DNA of 64,000 bases. Origin: an uncultured Acidobacteriota bacterium (GTDB lineage Bacteria > Acidobacteriota > Vicinamibacteria > Vicinamibacterales > CAVVIG01). This document shows, one piece after another, positions 1 to 12,400 of this stretch; within the stretch, counting starts at the first letter, position 1; the number at the start of each line of letters is the position of its first letter. The notes beneath the pieces were generated by a model. The model ran no database searches, was not told where the DNA came from, and saw nothing but the letters and a program-made list of their open reading frames with translations. The DNA is taken from positions 3,249,080-3,313,079 of the forward strand of contig CAWEDP010000002.1 of the NCBI GenBank assembly GCA_963807925.1, read 5' to 3'. Both the position numbers and the translations under genes were made by a program.

Positions 1-2718
1 AACTCCCGCTTCGTTTGATCCTGCTGCGTGTCGCGTCCCTTGACTTCAACGACGACCATCTCACCGGAGCGCAGCCGAACGATGAAATCGGGTCGGAACT
101 TGTGCACCATACCCTGAAACAGGTAGAGGACTTCGAAGCCGAGATGGTCATTCTTCACCCATGCATCAACGTTTGGGTGATGATCGAGCGCGAAGGATTC
201 GGTCGATTCCCACGTGCTGTCCGCCACGCAGAAGTTGATGTGCGACTTCTCCGTGTAGATGCACGGCTTGCCGGAATACCACTGGCGCATATCCGCTGTT
301 GAGCGGATCGGATTGTCAGTGTCGAACACGGGCACGGTGCGTTCGGCGTTGGCAAACCGAATCGCTTCCCATATATGCTGCACGACCTTATTCATGTTCA
401 GCGTGATGAGAATCCGCCGACGTGCATCGTCCTGATTGAACAAAGGCGGCGTGATGTGGATGTGCCCGGAAGAAATGAACTGTTCGACCAGCCGGATCAA
501 TTGGGCTAACAGGAACTCCCGGCTCCCGGTCCACGTCGGCTGCATCTGGTCGTAGATGTCACGGGCGGTTTCGAAGACGATTTTCTGCATTCGAAATTCG
601 TCCGCCAATTTGTCCAAACCGATTTCCGCGATGATTTTCTCGACGGGCTTGCCGGCGAGCACGGGCGACAACTGTGCGATGGTCGCCGTGTCTGCCGCAT
701 TCAGGTCGAGCGGCTTCACGGCATCCATGTCCAACCGCAACGTCGGTTTGTAGACGTGGTCGATCCGCACGACATTCGGGAATCGGATTTCGAACTGCGC
801 CTTTTCTCGCACCGGCTCGACGCAGGTTTTGGGGCGGGCGGCGGCGGCGGTGGACCTTCGCCGCCTTCGTGCGGCAGGAACGTGAACGGCACACCGAAGA
901 TGTTCACGTATTCGGGGTCGAACAGCCCGGTCTGCCGGGTTGACCTCATACGACGTGCGCCGTAATCCGCGCCCGACGACCTGCTCACAGAGCGATTGCG
1001 ACGTGAAGGCGCGTAAACCCATGATGTGCGTGACAGTTTTCGCGTCCCAACCTTCGGATAGCATGCCGACTGAAATCACGCTCCGAATCTGTTCGCCAGG
1101 CTGCCCCACGCGCCCCACGGTATCGACCGTTTCCCGGAGCACTTCGGCTGCTTCTTTTTTCGTGAGTTTCCGCCGACCAGATTCCGCGCCGTCGTTGTCT
1201 TCCTCATCACCGTTCTCATCCGCGCTGTCATCGCCGTTCGTAACCGCCGTCACCGGAGCCTCATCCTGCGACTCCGCCATGTCCAACACCTTCGAATCGA
1301 TGTGCAAGGTGAGCTCGGGATCGCAGAGTTCATCGATGCGGACTTTCTTGTGATCGAAGGCGTATTTCACGCGGGCGGCGGTTTCCGTCCGGTTGACGAC
1401 GGAAATCATCACGGGCGGCGTCTTGAACCCGACATGTTCCCACGCCTTCGCCGTCTCCAACCAATCACGTCCGAGCAGGTAGTAGCCATTGATGACAAGG
1501 TCGGGGAGCGGTCTCGTGCTCCTGCGCCTTTCGGTTCAAGTCGTCCTTACACGGAATCGTAGATGTGGTAGAGCTTGGACTTGTAGGTTTTGACATCAGG
1601 AAGTCCATCGTCACGGACGACCACACGTGGCGTTTTCACCAGCCCGGATTCGATGGCGTCGTTCAGACCAAAGTCCTAGACAATCCATCCGAACAGGGCT
1701 TCTTCGCTGCTCTTCTTGCCCGATGGAACAAATGGAGTGGCGGAGAAATCGTAGCAGCCGAGAATGTTGCGTGTGCGTGTTGATGCGGTCCAATCCGCCG
1801 ATCCACTTGGTCGCTTCCTCAATGTCGTCCTTTGACACACCCTCGATCTTCGAGCCGGCTGGCACACGCCACGCATGGTGCGCTTCGTCGTTGATGACGA
1901 GGATGTTCCGGGCACTCGCCATGTCTGCCCCAAGAACCTGCCGGACGTAGGCTTCGTCGCTTTTTGCCCCACGCTTATCGACACCCTTTTTCTTGGCGAT
2001 CCGTTCGGCTGACTCCCAATTGAGTGCGTGCCAGTTGCGGATCTTCACCTTGCCTTGCCGCAACTTGTCCATGAGCGCGGTCGGAACGATGTTGAACTCT
2101 TGGTAGTAGTTGTCGGAGCCGGACGGCTCCAACACCGCAAGCCGGCTCCGCACCGTTAATCCCGGTGCAACGACAAACACATGCTTGGAAAACCGAGCGT
2201 CTTGCGGATTGCTGACCTTGTTGAGGATGTGCCACGCGATCATCATCGCCATGACGATGGTCTTGCCGGAGCCGGTCGCCATTTTCGCGCACACCCGTGG
2301 GAACGCGCCGCCTTCCTGTGGCACATCGATCCCTACCTTGTCGGCGTCCGGCGCTTCCGTCAGCCAAATCAGTGTCTCGATGGCTTCCAACTGACAGAAG
2401 AAGAATCGGCGATCTGTTCGTTCATCCGGGTCATACCAATGGTCGAGCAGGCGCTTCGTGATGGCGGTGACGCCCGGATAGCCGGCTTCTCGCCATGCCT
2501 TCACCCGTGGACGAATCAGATTGACGAGTGGGATTTCTTTGAAAATGCCCGGATCATCGAACGAACGGGAATGCTCCGACGCGATGACGTATCCGGCAGG
2601 ACGCCGCTTGCCTTCAATCGAGCGAGAACGTCCGAGAATCACGGTCGTATTGCCAATAGCGCGTCGGCTCCTGATACGGCGAGTTGACGATGAGCTTGTC
2701 GATTGTGGTCGTCGCCAT
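1..2718 (-). pseudogene. res: Type III restriction enzyme Res subunit (SF2 helicase + C-terminal PD-(D/E)xK-like nuclease), heavily disrupted; 3' end runs off the window
   Basis: ATG at 2718, six nt after the mod stop. Walker A AKMATGSGKT and DEAH box VINDEAHHAW (ORF 1611-2642). SEGWDAKTVTHIMGLRAF helicase motif. FRPDFIVRL..VVVEVKG near the window start. The frame must be changed at ~2630, ~1785, ~1555, ~1520, ~935 and ~835, and there is an in-frame TAG at 1676-1678 (GWIV*DFGLNDAIESG). Confidence 0.8.
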
Positions 2719-2724
2719 GTCCGA

Positions 2725-5288
2725 CTACTCGACGGCGACGATTTTCAATGACTCGATGCCACGGTCATCGATGATCTTGACCGCAACGCGCTTGTGCTTG
2801 CCGGCTTCAAACGGTAGGGAAACGTGGCCACGAAATGCCGCGATGAGGTCGGGATCGATTTCGGCGTGCAGGCTTTTCGCCAGCCGCGCCCAACCGTCCT
2901 TCTCTCCCGCCATTGGGAAGAACACTTGATGCGGGTAGACGCTGCGCCCATCGTAATCCGTGTCCAGCATCCACATGGCGATCTTGTCGGTGCTGCCAGA
3001 CACAATCGTGCCGGATTTCGTATCGTAGTAATCGAAGCCGCGCACTTCGACCGTGTATTTGCCTTTGTGATCGCCCGACGTGATCCTCTTCGGCGAAGGC
3101 GACGTCGGGCTGGCCAATCAGCCAAAAACTCTCATTGCTGGCGCGTTTTTTCTTGAGGTCGTCGGTCAGCAGATCGGCGCTCATCTGTGCCTTCAGAAGC
3201 GTCACGCCGGGAAAGTTCGTCTCGTCAATGTCCTTCGCAGCTTCGGGATCGAACTGGAATGCCGCAAACACGATCATCTTGGGCTTCGGAACGAGCCGTG
3301 CTGCTTCCTCAACCGCTGTCTCGACCTGCCGCTGTTCGAGCGGTGCGTGCGCCGGTCCAAAGCTGATGGCAACCCGCTGTGCATCTCTCGTCTCCGCAAT
3401 GGCGTGTAACCAGCGCGTGCCCGGTGACGGCTCGACGCGCACGAACTCAATTTTCTGTCCGCCCTTCCCGCGAATGCCAGTCTTGTGGAGTTCGTCGCGC
3501 CATTCAGCCTGCCGGAGCGTTTCACCGGAACGTGAGATGGATTCATCAGCGGGCGCGGCGTTCTCCGCTTCGATATCGTGTAGGGATTCCACTGCGGGCG
3601 CAGGCACCGCTTCGACCGTGAATGGACCCGTCACGCGCACTTTGTTGTTGTCGGGAGTCGGTTGGTCGAAAAGAGTTTCGGGCTTGGCATAACGAGCAAT
3701 CGCATGATCGACCTGCTCTCTCGGCATTCCGGCGCGAATCTCCTGGTTATTCGCAATCGTTTCCAACGTCACGTGTGGCACGGTCTTGTAGACGAAACCA
3801 CTACCGACGCCTTCTTCTGGTCGAGCGAGTTGGTAATACTCGAACAGAGAGGTCATTAGCCGTTGCTTCGCAAGCGTGATGGCAACGCGAGACGTATCGC
3901 ACGTAATCCAACGCCTGCCCCATTCTTCAGCGACGAATGCAGTGGTCCCCGAACCGCAAGTCGGATCGAAAACAAGGTCGCCGGGGTCAGTTGTCATTAG
4001 CATCGCCCGCTCGATGACAGTTTGCGTGGTCTGAACCACGTAGATGCGCCGCTTGAACTCAATCGTGTCCTGCCAAGAATTGACGAGCGATCCGAATCCG
4101 AAGTCGCTGAGATACATCTTGAAGTAGAGTTTCTCGCCGAGCACGAAGAGCCGGTTGGCGTTCCGCAAACGTTCAACTCCGGCTGGAGTTGTCCGCCAAC
4201 TTTTACCGCCGCTTGTTTGGAATGGCTCGCCTTCGAACTCGATGGTGAAGGTGCAGGACGGCGTGTAGCCAGACGAAGCGAGGTCAGACCGCTTGAATAT
4301 CCTTTCGGTCGCCGCTGTCCTATCGAAGTGTTCTATTTCTTCAGCCGTGAGTCGTCGATATCCACCGTCAGCGGTATCGGCAAATACGAACTCTGAGTCT
4401 CCGCCAACATTCTTCTCGACAAAGAGGTTTCGATATTTCAACGCCTTCTTGTCTCTCGCATACCAGCAGAGATAGTCGAACACGGATTCGATATGCCCGG
4501 ACTCAAGGGGCATCATCGTCTTGAAGTTGATGACTGCAACGAAATTCTCCGGTCCGAACACTTCATCGAGAAGACACCGGACTCTGTGAAGATTCTCGTC
4601 ACCAATCTGCACGAACACGGAGCCGCTGTTGGTTAGCAGATTCGCGGCTGAGCAACAGCCGGTCCCGCAAATAGGTCAAATACGAATGGACGCCGAGTTC
4701 CCACGTATCGCGGAATGCCTTGATCATTTCCGGTTCCGTGGTTAAGTCGTCGTCTTTGCGGTCGTCCACCTTCCGCTTGTTTACGAACGGCTGAAAATTC
4801 GAACCGTATTTGATGCCGTAGGGCGGGTCGAGGTAGACCATCTGCACCTTGCCGCCCATGCCTTCTTTTTCAACCAGCGAGTTCATGACGAGCAGGCTGT
4901 CGCCGGCAATCAAGCGATTCGACCAATTGTGGCGGTGCTTGTAGAACTCGATGGCTTCCCGAAGCGGCGGATTTTCGCTCGGTTGCTCGAACAGTGACGG
5001 TTGGTGCTGCGTGCCGTTCCGCTTCCGAACGGCTTCGAGGACGCTTCGAGAATCGATGCGTTCGTGAACGTGCAGCGAGACGGTCGGCACGTCGAACGAC
5101 GTGTGTTCCGCTTTACCTGCCCATTGCAGTGTTGGATCAAGATGCGGGTCGTAGGCGTAGGTTTTCTTGCCGCCGTCTCGGTCGGTGTCGGCGGTTACGA
5201 GTCCAACGGGCGGGTTGTTGACGCGCTTTTTGTCGGGATGTGCGTATTGCTCGATGGGCTTTTTCTCAGATTTCGGCTTTCGCGCCAT
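2725..5288 (-). pseudogene. mod: Type III-like (beta-class) DNA methyltransferase Mod, two frameshifts
   Basis: ORF 4599-5387 carries motif IV DPPY (VYLDPPYGIKYGSNF). ORF 2807-4618 carries motif I FDPTCGSGTT (IV before I, as in type III Mod). The C-terminus continues in ORF 2725-3117. Frameshifts at ~4640 (LLLSRE|LLTNSGSVFVQIGDE) and ~3090 (VAFAEE|ITSGDHKGKY). Likely start ATG 5288 with GAGAGG 8 nt upstream. Confidence 0.8.
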
Positions 5289-5463
5289 TCCAACCTCTCG
5301 ACGTTTCACGACCGACGTCTTTCGCGCCGGCTTCGAGCGAGCCGACTGCGGGCGGGCGGATTTGCGTCCACGAACTCGTTGCGGCATGTTGTCGCTTCTT
5401 GCGACGGCACTTTAGCAGCTTTGTGCGCGGCTCGAAAGTCGGAGAACCGGCTGCACCGCTACA

Positions 5464-5718
5464 ATGTCGTCGATGAACCTCAGCGAAATCTTTGATGCGT
5501 TGAACGGCAGGACATTCGCCTACCTCGAATGCCGCGACGGACGGAAATTCGGTCGCGTGCCGCTTGCGGTTAACTTCTGCGATGATGAAAACCTCGCGCC
5601 CGCCTGTATCGACGTAAAGCCGGACGGCTTGGTGCTGCACTTCAACTCCGATGACGGCTCCGGCACGAACAAGCGTGGCGAGTCCGTGCCGTTCGGCGAC
5701 ATTGTTGCCGTGCGGTAG
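5464..5718 (+). CDS. hypothetical protein (84 aa)
   Basis: ATG-started ORF on the same strand as the next two ORFs, with a 9-nt gap to the next. No motif recognised. Confidence 0.35.
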   Translation: MSSMNLSEIFDALNGRTFAYLECRDGRKFGRVPLAVNFCDDENLAPACIDVKPDGLVLHFNSDDGSGTNKRGESVPFGDIVAVR

Positions 5719-5727
5719 GTAGGTCTT

Positions 5728-6057
5728 TTGCTTTTTGTTCGCCCGCCTGCTATGCTGGCGTCCGCCGTGGGCGTCCGGGCGTGCATCGTGACTTTTTCCG
5801 GTGAGCGCGGCGTCCGGCATGCGGTCGAAGTGACGGCTGAATCACTCTACGAAGCGGCGGCACTGGCACTGTCGATCTTCCGCACATCCGAATGGGCGGA
5901 CCAGATCGGACCCGGCACCGAACTGCACGTGACCGTGAAGAATCCTGAAACGACGCACCGCGTGACGCTCGACCAGATCCGGCGCTGGTGTGACGGTGTG
6001 GCGGTGTCGCCGACCGAAGTGCTGAAACGTCATCGCGTCAAGACGCTCATTGGGTGA
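5728..6057 (+). CDS. hypothetical protein (<=109 aa, start uncertain)
   Basis: The ORF stop overlaps the GTG start of the next ORF (GTGA at 6054-6057), suggesting translational coupling. No motif recognised. Confidence 0.35.
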   Translation: MLFVRPPAMLASAVGVRACIVTFSGERGVRHAVEVTAESLYEAAALALSIFRTSEWADQIGPGTELHVTVKNPETTHRVTLDQIRRWCDGVAVSPTEVLKRHRVKTLIG

Positions 6058-7166
6058 GGCAAGCGTCCATGCCGTCAGTTCTCTCGCCGCAACAAGCCGC
6101 GTTCGACGCAGCCGTGAAGAGTTGGTGCGACTTCGATTATCCGGGCATCGCGGATCTTGAGGAACTGCGCACGCAGAATCCGTCGCTCAGTGCGTGGGTT
6201 GATCAATTAGTGGAACTTCGGCAGGCGTTCAACGCGGCGCTCTCCGTCGAAGGACAACACATCACTGATCACGCGCCGCACTCGCCGTTCTATTTCGATT
6301 ACCTTGACTCTCATCGTTCAAATGCACGTGCGTTCAGGGACGAGAACCACTCGTTCATCGGCGTGACGCTACCACTTGTTCGTGGTGTGGCGGCGATGTC
6401 AACATCGGTGAGCGCATCCGACGCCGTGGTAACACGGATCGGGCTTCCGATGACAACCGACCGCGAAGTCCTCAAGGGTGTGTTGTCATGGCTACTGCTC
6501 GGATATGTGATCACGCACGAATACACGCATCACGTTCACGGGCATCTTGATGGACGGTTCGAGCCGCTTGAGGAAATCAGCGCCGGTTCATTAAAGGGCA
6601 CGCTGGCGCAGCAAGCACGTGAACTCGACGCTGATGGCTACGCCGCGTATTTCACGCTCGCGTTTTGGCTCGACAGCCCGGACGGTCGGAATGCAATCTC
6701 GCATCTGTTGGGCATTCAGGATCTTCCACCGGAATCTCACGACGCGATTTCGTTTAGTTGCTTCCTCGTCGCGCAGGCGGCGTTTACGTTCCTTCGTGAG
6801 CCGGAACTGCTTGACAGGGACAAGGCATACCGCCGAACTCACCCGCCGCAGCCTGTCAGACTTCAGGTGATGTCTCGGTTCGCTCGAAAATGGTCCACCG
6901 AGTTCCGTCCGACTCTATATCGTTGGATGACGCAGGCGCGGTATCAGTTGATGATGGATGCCGTGTCAGCCGTGATTTGGACAGGCAAGCACGCGGTGGG
7001 TTGGCGAGCGCAGATGGAGTTTCTGAAGTCAGACGACGGAACGGCATACGTCAATGCCTTGCTCGCGGAACTAGATTCGTTTCGAGGGACGTTGCGCACT
7101 GGGAACGAAGCTACTGGGACATCCGATGCGATTGAAGCCGACCGTTTCATTGGCGTTACGGACTGA
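6054..7166 (+). CDS. putative HExxH zinc metallopeptidase, ImmA/IrrE-like
   Basis: 370 aa. HExxH in VITHEYTHHVHGH is followed ~35 aa later by ELDADGYAAYF, the HExxH...ExxA(N/D)x(F/Y)A layout of COG2856/M78-type peptidases. Assignment is from the motif only; alternative ATG start at 6069. Confidence 0.5.
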   Translation: MRQASMPSVLSPQQAAFDAAVKSWCDFDYPGIADLEELRTQNPSLSAWVDQLVELRQAFNAALSVEGQHITDHAPHSPFYFDYLDSHRSNARAFRDENHSFIGVTLPLVRGVAAMSTSVSASDAVVTRIGLPMTTDREVLKGVLSWLLLGYVITHEYTHHVHGHLDGRFEPLEEISAGSLKGTLAQQARELDADGYAAYFTLAFWLDSPDGRNAISHLLGIQDLPPESHDAISFSCFLVAQAAFTFLREPELLDRDKAYRRTHPPQPVRLQVMSRFARKWSTEFRPTLYRWMTQARYQLMMDAVSAVIWTGKHAVGWRAQMEFLKSDDGTAYVNALLAELDSFRGTLRTGNEATGTSDAIEADRFIGVTD

Positions 7167-7208
7167 CACTCACGGATCGGCGGCGACCGTGGAAGACACA
7201 ACGCCGAC

Positions 7209-7471
7209 TGTGACCTCGATTGTGACCGTGCCAATCCGAACGCTGGTGTTTTACTGCGGTTTACGGCGTGTGAGCTAGATCGACGGGACCGAAACTAAAC
7301 CGTTTGGTCAGTAGACGTTCAACGTGATCGGCAGCACTTTGCCGCGATCCGCCGAAGCACTTTCCAAGCGTGCTCCTTCAACCACTCGGACATCTCTCCG
7401 ATTGAGTGGAATCAACAGTTTACCGGACGGCGGCGAGCCCTGCAAAAGCAAACTGTGACGTGACTGTGACG
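7209..7471 (+). repeat. Four direct (C/T)TGTGAC(C/G) repeats in two pairs flanking a tRNA-like core; candidate integrase arm-type sites
   Basis: TGTGACC at 7209-7215 and 7221-7227 (12-bp spacing). CTGTGACGTGA x2 at 7453-7463 and 7464-7474 (11-bp period). All four are in the same orientation. The tRNA-Ser-like fragment lies between the pairs. Confidence 0.5.
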
Positions 7472-8612
7472 TGACGCTTTCAGGCACGTCGACGATCGCT
7501 TTGATCTCCGCGTCCTGTGCTTGGTTTCCCTTCTCGTCGCCATTGCCGTTCGACGGTAGCACGCGACCGCGCTGCGCATCCAGCGCGTCGAGCGCCTGGC
7601 GCTTCGCGTCGATCCGAATGTGCGAGTAGTGCTCCAGCATCCGGCGCGACAGGTGGCCGGTGATCGACTCGAGCACATGATCGGCGACACCCATTTCGGC
7701 CGGCTCGGTGATGACCGTGTGCCGCAGGTCGTGGAAGCGCAGGCCGTGCAAGCCGGCGGCGTCACGAAGCGCACGCCAGGCCGTGTCCCATTTCAGCATC
7801 GGCTTCGTCGGATCGAACTGTCCCCACTGGCAGGCCGGCCAAAGGTAATGCTCCGGTTCGGCGTGGCCGAGCATGTCGGCGCGCTCGAACATCCGCGCGA
7901 GTGCATTGAGCGCAGACCCGTTCAACGGGATCACGCGATGACTTGACTCGTTCTTGCTCCGTCGCACGTGCAAGAGCTTCTTGACGAGGTCCACATCGCA
8001 CCGCCGCAGGTGCTTGACCTCGACCGGTCGCATCGATGTGTTCGCGGCGACAATCGCGGCGCAATACACGTGCTCCCATTCCTGATTTGATGCAGCGGCG
8101 GCGAAGAGCCGCCTCTGCTCGTCGGCCGTCAACGCACGGCCGATCGGATGCTGGCGCTCTGGTAGATTGCGCACATGCTCCGCCATGGCTCGCCAACGAC
8201 CGCAGGACTTCAGCACGCGCGATAGCACGCCGACGTCCATGTTGATGGTGCGGTTCGCGATCCCCGCGTCGTGGCGTGCCCGCTGAAAGTCGGCAATCGC
8301 TGCCGCCGTAATCGCCGAGAGGGGCACGTCGCCGAAGTGTTTCTTGACGAGGCTGAGACGCTCCTCTTCAAGCTCGATCGTCCGAGGCGAACAACGCATC
8401 TGCTTAGCGGCAAGGTACGATTCGATTCCCTCCGACAACCGCTTGGGTCCCTGCTCGCTGGTGGCCAGCAGTCCGCGGCCGGCGTTGTCAATCAGGTCGC
8501 GCTCGCGCTTCTTCGCTTTCTGCAGATTCGTCGTGCCGAGTCGCTTCCGGTATCGCTGCCCGGCGACGGTGAAGTCTGTCCAGTACTGACGGCCGCGCTT
8601 CCAAAGACTCAT
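7308..8612 (-). CDS. int: tyrosine recombinase / phage-type integrase with atypical ~90-aa C-terminal extension
   Basis: 434-aa ORF. Catalytic region RFHDLRHTVIT...GHLSRRMLEHYSH (R..HxxR..Y). The extension after the catalytic Tyr reads through a tRNA-Ser-like sequence (aa NRRDVRVVEGARLES). Confidence 0.9.
   Translation of the reverse strand: MSLWKRGRQYWTDFTVAGQRYRKRLGTTNLQKAKKRERDLIDNAGRGLLATSEQGPKRLSEGIESYLAAKQMRCSPRTIELEEERLSLVKKHFGDVPLSAITAAAIADFQRARHDAGIANRTINMDVGVLSRVLKSCGRWRAMAEHVRNLPERQHPIGRALTADEQRRLFAAAASNQEWEHVYCAAIVAANTSMRPVEVKHLRRCDVDLVKKLLHVRRSKNESSHRVIPLNGSALNALARMFERADMLGHAEPEHYLWPACQWGQFDPTKPMLKWDTAWRALRDAAGLHGLRFHDLRHTVITEPAEMGVADHVLESITGHLSRRMLEHYSHIRIDAKRQALDALDAQRGRVLPSNGNGDEKGNQAQDAEIKAIVDVPESVTSQSRHSLLLQGSPPSGKLLIPLNRRDVRVVEGARLESASADRGKVLPITLNVY
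7358..7400 (-). other. 5' half of a tRNA-Ser(GGA)-like sequence (acceptor 5' strand, D-arm, anticodon 5' stem and loop); no 3' half
   Basis: Minus strand reads GGAGAGATGTCCGAGTGGTTGAAGGAGCACGCTTGGAAAG. This gives acceptor GGAGAGA, a Ser-type D-arm TCC-GAGTGGTTGAA-GGA and loop TTGGAAA (anticodon GGA). The sequence after the loop does not pair with the stem and no T-arm follows. Confidence 0.6.
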
Positions 8613-8881
8613 ACCCGCAACTCCCCGGCCTTCGACTCTCCATCTGACGCGGAAACCGATCCCGTGTCAACTACACACGCGCGAATGAATTCATCGAGGT
8701 CCGCCCGCAGGTACCGAACGGCTCGCCCGAACCGGACGAACCGCGGTCCTTTGCCTCGATGACGCCACGCTCGCAGCGTCGCAACGGACAATCCGAGATG
8801 GTCCGCGGCGTGCGTCTCAGTGAGTGCGTTTCCGGATCGGAATTTCTCGTTGGTGTCAGCGATGTTCCGCGAGGTCCTCAT
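8609..8881 (-). CDS. excisionase/AlpA-family helix-turn-helix protein
   Basis: Its stop overlaps the int start by 4 nt (ATGA). HLGLSVATLRAWRHRGKGPRFVRFGRAVRYLRADLDEF matches the AlpA/Xis-type HTH. The true start may be internal. Confidence 0.65.
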   Translation of the reverse strand: MRTSRNIADTNEKFRSGNALTETHAADHLGLSVATLRAWRHRGKGPRFVRFGRAVRYLRADLDEFIRACVVDTGSVSASDGESKAGELRV

Positions 8882-9429
8882 AAGCGATCTCCCAGCGCGC
8901 CACGTTGCGCAAGAACGAACAATGCTTTGCGGGGATTTGCGCCAAGGCGCGCCGGCGATGTGGCCGGCGCGGTGCTGGATTCAGGCGCGGGCGCTGGCAT
9001 GATGCGAGCGCCGGGCCACGTGGACGCTTAGTCGACGCGGTGTGGGCAGCGATTTCAGCAATCGCTCACTGTCCCACCCGAAGTCCGGCGAGTACTCACG
9101 GCCGAAAGGCCGAGAACCATTCGCCGCTGCCGGCTGGCTGACGCTCGCCTTGAGGACGGCGTCGCTGAGTGCCACCGGTCTTGTCGTTGCCGTGCGCGAC
9201 GTCGTTGCGCTCAGCGCAGTGAGTGCTAAACGGCCTTGCGTTCGACGGAGGACCTGGGTCGTCAGTCGTAACGCGCTCCGCATGCGATGTAGCGAGCGGA
9301 GGGGGTGCTCTAAGAGCACCGGCGAGATGATCGCAGGATAGCGCCCCATCGATCATCTCGTCAATCTCAGCCATTGTGATCCGTGATATCACGTCGGCGG
9401 CCGAGCGATTCTCCGTTGGTGATCGCCGT

Positions 9430-12400
9430 CTAGAATTCGAATTTTAGTTGCACGGCGATCATTCGCGGTGAATTATCGCCGCCCAGTCCGACACCGAGCA
9501 AACCCGTCGGCGGTGAGGTCGTGTACGTGAGCGCACCGAACCCGGTTTGCGTACTCGGCTCACCGGGAATGCCCGCAGTCGACGTCGGAAGCGCAAAGTT
9601 CGCGCGGTTGAACAGGTTGAACACTTGCAGTTCCGCTCGCACCGTCGTCCGTTTCGAGCGGGCGATCCGTTTGCTCACGTACAGATCGCTCCAGACGAAC
9701 TGCGGGCCGCGTACGGATTGCGACCGAGATCCCCAAACTGACACGTCGCCAGCGAGTCTCCGCCGCGACAGGCGCCGGTACTCGGATCGACGCTCGAGAC
9801 AAAGGCATCCGGATTCAACCACTGGAGCGTGCCTGGCGGTGTGACACCCGTAATCGGCATCGTGGTGTACAGCGGCACGCCCGGTACGACGCTCGCGAAC
9901 TGCGGGCCGCCGCCGTTGATGATGCCGTGGCCGTTTGCGGAATACGGCGCGCTCTGCACGGTGAAGGGCACACCAGTGTGCCAGAAGAAGGTCTCCGAGA
10001 TTTGCCAGCCGTTGATCAGCGCAGCCAGCCACGGACGTGACGCGTGCGCGGGCAGCTCGTACGTGTACGACGCCGTGAGGTTGTGGCGAATGTCGTAATC
10101 GGCGTCGCCGAACTGCCGGGCGAGCTCGCCGGGCAGCGGCGAGAGCAGCGCCCCCGCCGAGAACGGCAGGAATCCGCCGTTCGAAACCGCGTCCTGCGAG
10201 TGACTCCACGTGTAGTTGGCGATCCACGACAACCCGGCGCTCGGGCGGCGCTGCAGCGTGAGTTGCAGGCCGTTATACCGGCTCGTCGCATTCGACATGA
10301 ACTGCGTCACGTCGCCAAAGCGGGGATCGGGCGGCTTCCCGTACGGATACGGTGCGAAGCAGCCGTCGCACACCGTCTGATAGCCGTTCACATGCATTTG
10401 GTACGTGAGGTCGTAGCCGCGCGTGCCGACATACTGCGCGCGAAGCATCATGCGCGCCGGCAGCTCCCGTTCGAAACCGGCGCTCCACTGCAAGTAGAAG
10501 GGCACGGCGAGGCCGCCGGGCGGCAGCGCGGTCACGTTCACGGGTGGGAGGCACGCGCTCGGATTCGCGAGCGCCGAGGCACATGAGCGCTCGCCGTTTC
10601 GAAACCCAGAGAGGAAGGCTTGGTTGGCCGCGGCCGTCGCATCGACGGCGCTGTTCGGCACACCGGGCGCGATCGCCAACCCGCCGGCTGATCCTAGCAA
10701 CCCGCCTTGAAAGCTGTTCACGAACGGCGGGTTGGGAGCGAGCGCGTCGATCAGGCTGCCCGCCGGCAACAGATCGCCGAACACCCCGAACCCGCTGCGC
10801 AGCAGCGTGCGCGGTGTCACTTGCCACGCGAGACTGGTGCGCGGCTGCCAGATCGCGCCCGGCCGCGCGTTGAGCACCCGAGACTGATTCGTCGCCATGA
10901 CGGAATCGATCGGTTGATTGATGTCATGCGCCATCTGATCGAACGAGGTGTTCAAGCGCGTCAGCGCGGACGACGGGCTAGACGGATTCGAGATCCAGGC
11001 GGTTCGCAACCCGATCGTCCACGTGGCGCGGTCAGACAGCTTGATGGCATCCTGCGCGAACACGTCGATATTGTTGACGCGGAACGCCGTGATCGGAGCG
11101 GCTGGGAAGGCGCGCGTCGCCGTCGAGGCGACGCCATAGATGAATTGCGGCAGCGTCGTGTAGGTGACGACCGGCGTGGTGCCTGCGCCGAAATCATAAT
11201 CGTCGAACCGAAGCCATCGGATACTTTCGCCGAATCGCCACTCGTGCCGCCCGGCCGTCCAGGTCACATCATCGTTCACGTGGAACCGTGTGGCTTTGCG
11301 ACCCTGCGGCCACAAGTAGTCGAGCCCGCCCAGCGTGGCGAAGGGGACGTTCGGTCCCTGCCCTTGCAGCACGATTGGGAAGGCCGATAAGGTCGCCCCG
11401 AGATCCGACGGCGCGAACACGCTCGAATACCACGAGAACGACGGATTGAAATGGTTCACGAGGTGATCGCTGAAAATGTGGGTGTAGCCCGACACGAACG
11501 AGTACAGCGGCTGTGGCGAGATCGCGTGAAACAGCGGACTGATGGGATCGGTGTATGCGGCCTGGAGGCCCGTGTCGGCCTGAAGCCGATACCAGACGAG
11601 GTTGTTCGGGTTGACGTTCTGATCGATCCGCAGCGTGAACACCTGCTCATGGTCCGGACTGCTAAGTGTGACGTTCTGTCGATTCGCGCAGCCGTCGCCA
11701 TTAGGCACCGCGCCAGTCGCGACGCCGCCCGCCGCGATTAAGGGACAGCCCAGGACAGGCAGCGGCTGCCCTGCCGTGCTGCGGTACAGCGAGAACATTC
11801 GTTGATAGAAGGGCACAAGCTGCGGCGCGGCCGGATAGGTCGTGCCTGAAATGGCGTCCACGCCGCCGCGCGGTAGTTGGCCGAGGATGTACTGCTGGAA
11901 TGCCATCGTCGGTACCGTAACCGTTGTGGCGATCGGCACGCGGATGCGGACCTGCTCGAAGTCCGCGAAGAAGAACACCTTGTTTTCGCGGACAGGTCCG
12001 CCGAGACTGCCGCCGTAATGCACGACCTGCGTGTCCGGCTTCTGTCCCCCAACCAGAGTCGTGAAGTAGTTGGCGGCGTTCAGCGCCGATCCATTCCACA
12101 GGCCGTAGGCGTTGCCGTGGAACGCGTTCGTCCCGGACTTCGTGACGTAGTTGACTTGCGACGCCGCGTACCGCCCCTGGTCGACTCGGTACGACGTCGT
12201 GTTGACGGTTACTTCCTCCATCGAATTCATCCCGAGTACCAGGTTCGTTGCCAAACCGCTGTTCAGATTCGTCAACGGATCGTTCGTCTCAAGGCCGTCG
12301 ACGATGAAGCCGTTGGACGTGCCGGGCAAGCCATTGACCTGGAAGTTGCCAAACCCGCTGGGACCGCCGACGAAATCATTGCCGGAGCCTGCCGTATTCA

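Follow-up and report, generated by a model that had tools for sequence, protein, structure and literature searches.

Positions 7190-7480 of the window, the 64-kb stretch of DNA analysed here (G000:C2:3249080-3313079, from a genome of 4.78 Mb), hold a partial tRNA-Ser(GGA) gene that lies in the reading frame of a tyrosine integrase, int2, and is flanked by TGTGAC repeats. We read this site, with a probability of roughly 0.87, as the seam between two integrative islands that stand in tandem at the only tRNA-Ser(GGA) gene of the genome. The arm on one side (P arm) would belong to an older island, el2, and the arm on the other side (P′ arm) to a second island, el1, so that P arm, tRNA core and P′ arm together form the attL site of el1. 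A first-pass annotation had proposed an attachment (att) site of a tyrosine integrase that targets tRNA-Ser(GGA), with crossover at the anticodon loop and with the 5′ half of the tRNA as the shared block, an unusual polarity. Both points hold, as breaks and ends of homology fall at this loop and a native promoter block precedes the displaced fragments in relatives.

The minus strand from 7400 to 7361 reads GGAGAGATGTCCGAGTGGTTGAAGGAGCACGCTTGGAAAG. It matches nucleotides (nt) 1-40 of the intact tRNA-Ser(GGA) gene at 40 of 40 positions, and the identity stops one base beyond the anticodon loop (stem CACGC, loop TTGGAAA). In BLAST searches this 40-mer occurs only twice in G000, both times on the minus strand. 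One copy is the fragment (C2 3256440-3256479), and the other (C2 3229765-3229804) lies in the single tRNA-Ser(GGA) gene of the genome, C2 c[3229714..3229803]. A BLAST search over the genome with a word size of 7 gave no third copy of the 5′ half. Fragment and intact gene share one replicon and one orientation; following the direction of the tRNA, the fragment comes first, 26.6 kb upstream, which is the configuration that the island database Islander uses for 5′ fragments. ARAGORN reports no tRNA in the window, and Rfam gives nothing tRNA-like in 6500-9500 at E<=10. The first-pass annotation had described a tRNA 5′ half without a T-arm that ends after the anticodon loop, inside the integrase open reading frame (ORF) and past the catalytic tyrosine, and this description is borne out. 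Its alternative suggestion, that the 3′ half of the tRNA had been lost, is not: the 3′ half sits 26.6 kb downstream in the intact gene.

The interval between the two cores, C2 3229804-3256439, is taken to be the island el1 (26.6 kb), which begins outside the window. Its two ends have matching arms, and its attL and attR are the fragment and the intact tRNA, respectively. The island carries its own xis1-int1 pair. At third codon positions its G+C content (GC3) is 0.6-0.73, compared with 0.8-0.87 in flanking and core genes. With int1 inside the island, int2 overlapping the fragment and a length within the range of 2-200 kb, el1 conforms to the Islander definition of an island. The features of the junction and its surroundings are, in window positions:

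1-7360, no strand: 7.4-kb part of el1 nearest the attL junction, with a decayed type III restriction-modification (R-M) system and a three-gene module
7209-7226, minus strand: P′-arm repeat pair of el1, GGTCACAAT and GGTCACAGT, aligning with the P′ arms of related islands
7252-7266, minus strand: conserved CCGTAAACCGCAGTA box of the P′ arm, a putative protein-binding box, at the same place in loci L025, L065, L102 and L138
7308-8612, minus strand: int2, tyrosine integrase of 434 amino acids (aa), Pfam PF00589 at residues 160-332, E=7.7e-20
7361-7400, minus strand: displaced tRNA-Ser(GGA) 5′ half, the att core
7401-7425, minus strand: tRNA leader and -10-like block, GGTAAACTGTTGATTCCACTCAATC, recurring upstream of the intact tRNA with two differences
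7417-7445, minus strand: putative element-borne tRNA promoter, picked out by eye, TTGCAG at 7440-7445, a 17-nt spacer and TAAACT at 7417-7422
7453-7474, minus strand: P-arm repeat pair of the int2 element, an 11-bp tandem repeat, GTCACGTCACA twice on the minus and CTGTGACGTGA twice on the plus strand
8609-8881, minus strand: xis2, HTH_17 protein of 90 aa that resembles excisionases, its gene overlapping the start of int2, Pfam PF12728, E=5.6e-12
8882-9375, minus strand: probable last stretch of the truncated older island el2, with homology to L030 until 9345 and to L024 until 9374

Homologues of int2 were found in seven of 41 genomes of the same order (Vicinamibacterales). A scan of GTDB species genomes yielded 80 loci, mostly from Vicinamibacterales metagenome-assembled genomes (MAGs). 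An intact tRNA-Ser(GGA) follows the integrase on the same strand in 33 of them and overlaps its frame; in 13 a 5′ fragment takes its place. In G009, G036 and G026, for example, an int2 homologue of about 83% identity is followed by the intact tRNA, and the integrase frame runs into it. DNA homology to other int2 loci begins at xis2 and, in more than 30 loci, ends exactly at window position 7360/7361, the crossover. Because relatives show int2 and then an intact tRNA, with homology ending at the crossover, we take xis2-int2-P arm-tRNA-Ser to be the state of the locus before el1 arrived; the 33 loci represent this empty site. The state before any invasion, a native promoter followed by the intact tRNA, is seen in G017 and G016.

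Islands of the int2 type with both ends are present on long contigs in G047 (8.5 kb), G046 (14.9 kb) and G045 (27.9 kb). At their far end stands a displaced 5′ fragment, and after it comes a P′ arm (CCGTAAACC..., then GTCACAGTTACGTCACA). Two to four copies of the 5′ half are present in eight of the 35 genomes of the order that hold the sequence.

The layout of G000 is repeated in G041 (L137 and L136; C12 193789 and 129854). There, a 5′ fragment follows an int2-type gene that lacks its own far-end fragment, and between this 5′ fragment and the intact tRNA lies an island of 64 kb. A second integrase is encoded 17 kb into this island, on the opposite strand. Integrases of the same clade also occur in MAGs labelled Bifidobacteriaceae, Acidimicrobiales, Cyanobacteriota, Gaiellales, Gemmatimonadota and Xanthobacteraceae (L045, L049, L052, L065, L068-L070, L072 and L074). 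Since the core-bearing loci among these have a tRNA-Ser(GGA) sequence of the Acidobacteriota type, mis-binning or mislabelling seems more likely than a wide host range, and hosts outside the Acidobacteriota are not established.

The break point is identical in more than 25 fragments from many genomes. In G036 the attL and attR cores differ at positions 10 and 26, which places the exchange 3′ of position 26; in G041 they differ at positions 16 and 19, which places it 3′ of position 19. These differences are consistent with a crossover in the anticodon loop, and the loop sequence TTGGAAA (7362-7368) probably forms the overlap region. Directly after the loop, the P′ arms read GCGAT, ACGAT, GCGAA, GTGCT or TTGCT and preserve the stem complement GCGTG in part, as would be expected of a core whose dyad symmetry is imperfect.

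On both sides of the core, TGTGAC repeats are arranged in pairs. The hexamer begins at 7209, 7221, 7454 and 7465, always on the plus strand. The first two positions agree with those of the first-pass annotation, and the other two that it gave, 7453 and 7464, are starts of CTGTGAC. The window contains 24 copies of the hexamer on both strands, or about 0.11 per 300 bp, in line with the earlier estimate of about 0.1. Pairs of the form GTCACA-N3-8-GTCACA are rarer still, with four in the whole genome. Three of them flank the two tRNA-Ser cores in the orientation of the tRNA, at window 7454-7470, at window 7209-7226 and at C2 3229856-72, 52 nt upstream of the intact tRNA. The last of these, at the other end of el1, again consists of two copies of GGTCACAAT. 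The fourth pair in the genome (C2 928950-928965, minus strand, GGGTCACACCGGGTCACATCC) has no tRNA-Ser core nearby by BLAST and may be a chance occurrence or an unrelated site.

The P-arm pair is identical in G009, G036 and G026 and is present in dozens of Vicinamibacterales loci. The repeat varies with the integrase subfamily. It reads CGTCACAG in the int2 clade, GGTCACAAT in el1, TTCACAAT in L059, the nearest relative of int1, GTCACAA in L060 and (T/G)ACACA(A/G)TT in the L066/L089 clade; the subfamily motifs include GTCACAG, GTCACAAT and ACACAATT. The distance to the core is similar for every version, on either side. In attP, the P arm has two repeats about 55-75 nt upstream of the core, and the P′ arm has two at about 135-190 nt downstream. 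Across 32 int2-type loci, majority identity is 0.84-0.91 over the arm and promoter-like block, 0.55-0.71 over the linker that precedes them and 0.8-0.95 over the catalytic region. Because arm and promoter-like block are better conserved than the linker, their conservation fits a constraint at the DNA level. The repeats thus flank the core on either side, differ from the core sites, are conserved and vary with the integrase subfamily. By conservation, rarity and subfamily variation the TGTGAC pairs behave as arm-type sites, as the first-pass annotation had supposed, and are probably bound by the integrase.

The 5′ polarity of the site is apparent from the DNA upstream of the tRNA. A native block, GCGTGTGCGATAAT-N14-CCGCTCGCAA-N4-TTGA(T/A)TCTAAAG, is conserved upstream of tRNA-Ser(GGA) across genera (L112, L126, L114, L120 and L135). 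In G017 and G016 (L112 and L126) this block, GCGTGTGCGATAAT...CCGCTCGCAA...TTGATTCTAAAGAC, stands before the intact tRNA. In G012, G019 and G027, and in a looser version in G021, it stands before displaced fragments. Because the native block precedes the dead fragments, it is the host promoter and 5′ half that are displaced, and the island supplies the working ones. Some islands copy the last part of the native block, TTGATTCTAAAGAC; int2-type islands have TTGATTCCACTCAA instead. At one locus (L135, G027:C10 896000-912000) there are two 5′ fragments at a distance of 4.5 kb, and the native promoter precedes the upstream fragment. An intact tRNA-Ser(GGA) was not found there within 16 kb, and G027 has no third match at <=3 mismatches, so its working tRNA-Ser(GGA) may lie further off or have diverged.

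In an integrase tree of 57 rows, all rows linked to a tRNA-Ser(GGA) 5′ half fall into one clade of 38 rows with 100/100 support. Ten of the 38, including int1 and rows from short contigs, have no core in the DNA examined. In the neighbouring groups the arrangement is the conventional one, with the integrase facing a tRNA gene (Asp, Val, Pro, Gln or Ala) encoded on the opposite strand. The tree is midpoint-rooted, a root from which the direction of the switch in polarity is not readable.

The similarity between fragment and intact gene is not confined to the tRNA but reaches further than the first-pass annotation described. About 22 nt upstream of the tRNA start are common to both copies, with one substitution and one 1-nt indel (GTAAACTGTTGATTCCACTCAATC at the fragment, GTAAAGTGTTGATTCCACTCAAC at the intact gene). 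The leader and -10-like block has a mean majority identity of 0.91 across the 32 loci. The candidate promoter TTGCAG-17-TAAACT ends 16 nt before the tRNA, and a TAAAC box is found at the same distance in all subfamilies.

The integrase int2 has the HDLRH and LEHYSH motifs and the catalytic domain of a tyrosine recombinase. Its catalytic tyrosine is residue 329, and 105 residues follow. In this part the frame crosses the linker, the arm repeats (codons 380-387), the promoter-like block and the tRNA 5′ half (codons 405-418), and it stops 50 nt past the crossover (codons 419-434). The 86-aa tail of int2 matches no Pfam family. The att core thus lies within the integrase ORF and recombination alters the 3′ end of the gene, as in Myxococcus phage Mx8. 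An integrase split as in SSV was considered and rejected, as the entire catalytic domain including Tyr329 lies upstream of the core and the tail alone is exchanged.

Homologues of int2 are 72-91% identical, and the protein alignments end at aa 418-422. The distance from the tyrosine motif to the tRNA takes 13 values within the int2 clade, between 217 and 271 nt, all of them 1 mod 3. As these linker lengths keep the frame without stops, the linker evolves as coding sequence. Over the 44 loci covered by the frame test, 36 have no stop before the tRNA. Five of the others belong to the int2 clade, namely four loci in MFD-labelled MAGs, which we take to be long-read assemblies in which indel errors are a plausible cause of the frame loss, and L077. 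The remaining three are L059, L060 and L102. Other subfamilies (int1, L059 and L060) stop earlier, and the read-through into the att core is a feature of the int2 clade. Because the frame has no stop before the att core, the last residues of int2 depend on the DNA past the crossover. The tail after residue 418 has 16 residues here, and beside an intact tRNA the frame crosses the whole gene (...LESASADRGKV... here versus ...LESVCRGNST... next to an intact tRNA).

It is conceivable, if rather doubtful, that this read-through acts as a switch that senses the integration state, a kind of retroregulation built from the target gene. Where an island abuts an intact tRNA, the int message would run into a complete tRNA and could be cut by RNase P, leaving an int mRNA without a stop codon whose product would be tagged via transfer-messenger RNA (tmRNA). 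In an excised attP or at a tandem junction, the message would contain half a tRNA and end at a regular stop codon within the P′ arm, so that the full protein would be made.

The following course of events would account for the junction. The islands share one tyrosine-integrase clade that is common in Vicinamibacterales, with an attP that carries a promoter-like block, a leader and tRNA nt 1-40. Recombination in the anticodon loop would push the host promoter and 5′ half upstream as a dead fragment and leave a working gene made of the element's 5′ half and the host's 3′ half. In G000, the int2-type island el2 would have inserted first, and its far side would later have been deleted together with the native fragment, leaving xis2-int2-P arm. 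The island el1 would then have inserted into the rebuilt tRNA and split off el2's copy of the 5′ half, the present fragment at 7361-7400. The data show the geometry and conservation of the repeats, the polarity, the tandem structure and the maintenance of the frame, and from them we infer both this order of events and any present-day activity. We regard el2 as a stump, probably truncated, because homology stops near 9375 and neither a P′ arm nor a third core was found. Insertion sequence (IS) elements nearby could have caused the loss of its far side.

Other explanations of the site were weighed against the tandem arrangement. The first-pass annotation had offered, as one option, an unrecombined attP-like site. 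On such a reading int2 and the 26.6-kb segment would be a single element and the intact tRNA an unrelated or second site. P and P′ arms with similar repeats do flank one core beside an integrase gene, as in an attP, and the P′ arm of el1 aligns with int2-type P′ arms. However, the homology to more than 15 int2 loci stops at the crossover, the same integrase is followed by an intact tRNA in 33 loci, and the 26.6-kb segment has its own xis and int and ends at the intact tRNA in a P arm of its own with matching GGTCACAAT repeats. The attP-like appearance is also expected of a tandem junction by construction, because it joins the P arm of el2, a core and the P′ arm of el1. We therefore consider an unrecombined site improbable. 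Slightly less probable still is that xis2-int2 is a resident, vertically inherited module of the chromosome and el1 alone is mobile. No far-end fragment of an int2 element was found in G000, G009 or G026, and a TonB-receptor gene with core-like GC3 starts 800 nt past xis2, both of which would suit such a module. On the other hand, it was found in only seven of the 41 genomes searched in the order and is yet about 83% identical across families, complete two-ended islands of its type exist in G045, G046 and G047, and uninvaded genomes have a different, conserved native promoter. A partial duplication of the tRNA by chance or replication slippage, with coincidental TGTGAC repeats, has nothing in its favour besides the existence of a partial copy. 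Against it stand one break point that recurs in over 25 fragments across many genomes, repeats that are conserved and differ between integrase subfamilies, the adjacent integrase genes, and GTCACA pairs that are almost confined to att sites. We rejected this explanation as having next to no chance of being correct. A full tRNA does not fold at the site, homologous int genes are likewise followed by the fragment, and conservation of the repeats is seen, all of which agrees with the first-pass annotation in its broader claim of an att site.

Several observations weigh against a tandem of el2 and el1. The integrase int1 lies 22 kb from attL and, unlike that of L059, faces away from the intact tRNA. 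Because el1 also contains an IS3 element and a second recombinase fragment, it may be rearranged or composite. The P′ arm of el1 also resembles int2-type P′ arms, and its assignment to int1 hangs on a difference of 1-2 bases. For el2, neither a P′ arm nor an att remnant was found in 8860-9720 by BLAST against the att regions of L025 and L027, and no third 5′-half copy in G000 marks its far end. A strict sigma-70 scan and a terminator scan gave no match at either P arm, and because of the missing sigma-70 hit we speak of a putative promoter. Finally, the N-terminal 70 aa of int2 match Arm-DNA-bind_2 at residues 7-32 below threshold (E=0.18, 12 bits versus a cut-off of 22).

The part of el1 within the window has Pfam matches to N6_N4_Mtase and ResIII, and the island includes a remnant of a type III res gene. 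It also holds an IS3-type transposase, which lies outside the window, and methylases besides the ParB-methylase described below. Its integrase int1 has 365 aa (PF00589, E=5.9e-19) and is 58% identical to int2 over residues 1-348. A candidate el1 integrase beside the intact tRNA was considered and rejected: the adjacent gene is a 253-aa ORF without a Pfam hit, and int1 lies 3.7 kb off on the other strand. Also encoded in el1, outside the window like xis1 and int1, are a TIR-domain protein of 410 aa (C2 3237815-3239047; L001 11816-13048, minus strand) and a ParB-N/DNA-methylase fusion (C2 3244270-3245568; L001 18271-19569, plus strand). With these two proteins and the decayed type III R-M system, el1 looks like a defence island, judging from its gene content. 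A third tyrosine-recombinase ORF (C2 3235615-3236241; L001 9616-10242, minus strand) has 208 aa, which comprise no more than the catalytic domain (PF00589, E=1.2e-18). No relationship to int1 or int2 appears at E<=1e-20, and the ORF may mark an older boundary within el1.

These loci provide a clean example, rich in members, of islands which rebuild a tRNA gene at its front, including its promoter, and not at its tail. As close relatives with both polarities exist, the evolution of att-site polarity becomes testable. The findings account for orphan tRNA-Ser(GGA) 5′ halves in Acidobacteriota genomes and mark an integration hotspot, and the att anatomies could aid tools that map islands by tRNA fragments.

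Islands with 5′ fragments are a documented minority. Table 1 of Islander lists, among 3919 islands, 3760 with 3′ fragments of tRNA genes (tDNA) and 159 with 5′ fragments (Hudson, Lau & Williams 2015, PMC4383910). Its filters allow for a 5′ fragment that lies upstream of the tDNA, tandem arrays are resolved island by island, and the text notes that Mx8 and SSV integrases extend across attP (PMC4383910). Like the islands described here, Islander's 5′-fragment islands have an intact tDNA and an upstream cognate fragment in the same orientation; shared with Islander islands are also a tyrosine integrase inside or overlapping the island, a crossover centred on the anticodon, and arrays. The att anatomy of the 159 is not described in the portion of the text used here (PMC4383910). 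By contrast, the present islands come from one integrase clade in one order, with 5′ polarity throughout, a promoter-like block and neighbours of the usual 3′ polarity. Replacement of a 5′ end is also known from the dusA islands, where the target gene receives new upstream sequence with putative -10 and -35 elements (Farrugia et al. 2015, PMC4482086). They have this replacement in common with the islands at tRNA-Ser(GGA) but differ in their protein-coding target and integrase family.

As in phage lambda, xis and int are read towards attP, and direct repeats flank the core at about 55-190 nt. The differences are a tRNA target instead of an intergenic attB, four repeats in one orientation and an Arm-DNA-bind_2 match that stays below threshold (E=0.18). 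The arm-type consensus of lambda is (C/A)AGTCACTAT, which GGTCACAAT and CGTCACAG resemble.

In literature searches that could not take phrases with a prime sign, such as 5′ end, we did not find a description of one integrase clade with 5′ polarity throughout, of the att anatomy of such a clade, or of an int gene that overlaps arm sites, a promoter-like block and a tRNA half in the sense direction. The closest counterpart to the overlap is Mx8, whose attP lies inside intP, so that integration creates a new int 3′ end (Tojo 1996, Magrini 1999, as outlined in PMC6070905). Both in Mx8 and in int2 the att core is located within the int frame, the catalytic domain stays intact and a new 3′ end is acquired. 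Mx8 reportedly also targets a tRNA gene, at the 3′ end of tRNA-Asp. In int2, unlike Mx8, the sense frame runs through arm repeats, a promoter-like block and a tRNA 5′ half, and through the whole tRNA when the intact gene abuts. The Mx8 precedent is extended by a bacterial integrase that keeps its frame open all the way through its arm sites, the promoter-like block and the tRNA half. The 5′ polarity, the tandem junction and the integrase that crosses attP thus each have a precedent, and the site is a clear example of a documented minority class, of which the Mx8-like overlap of the integrase is the most distinctive trait.

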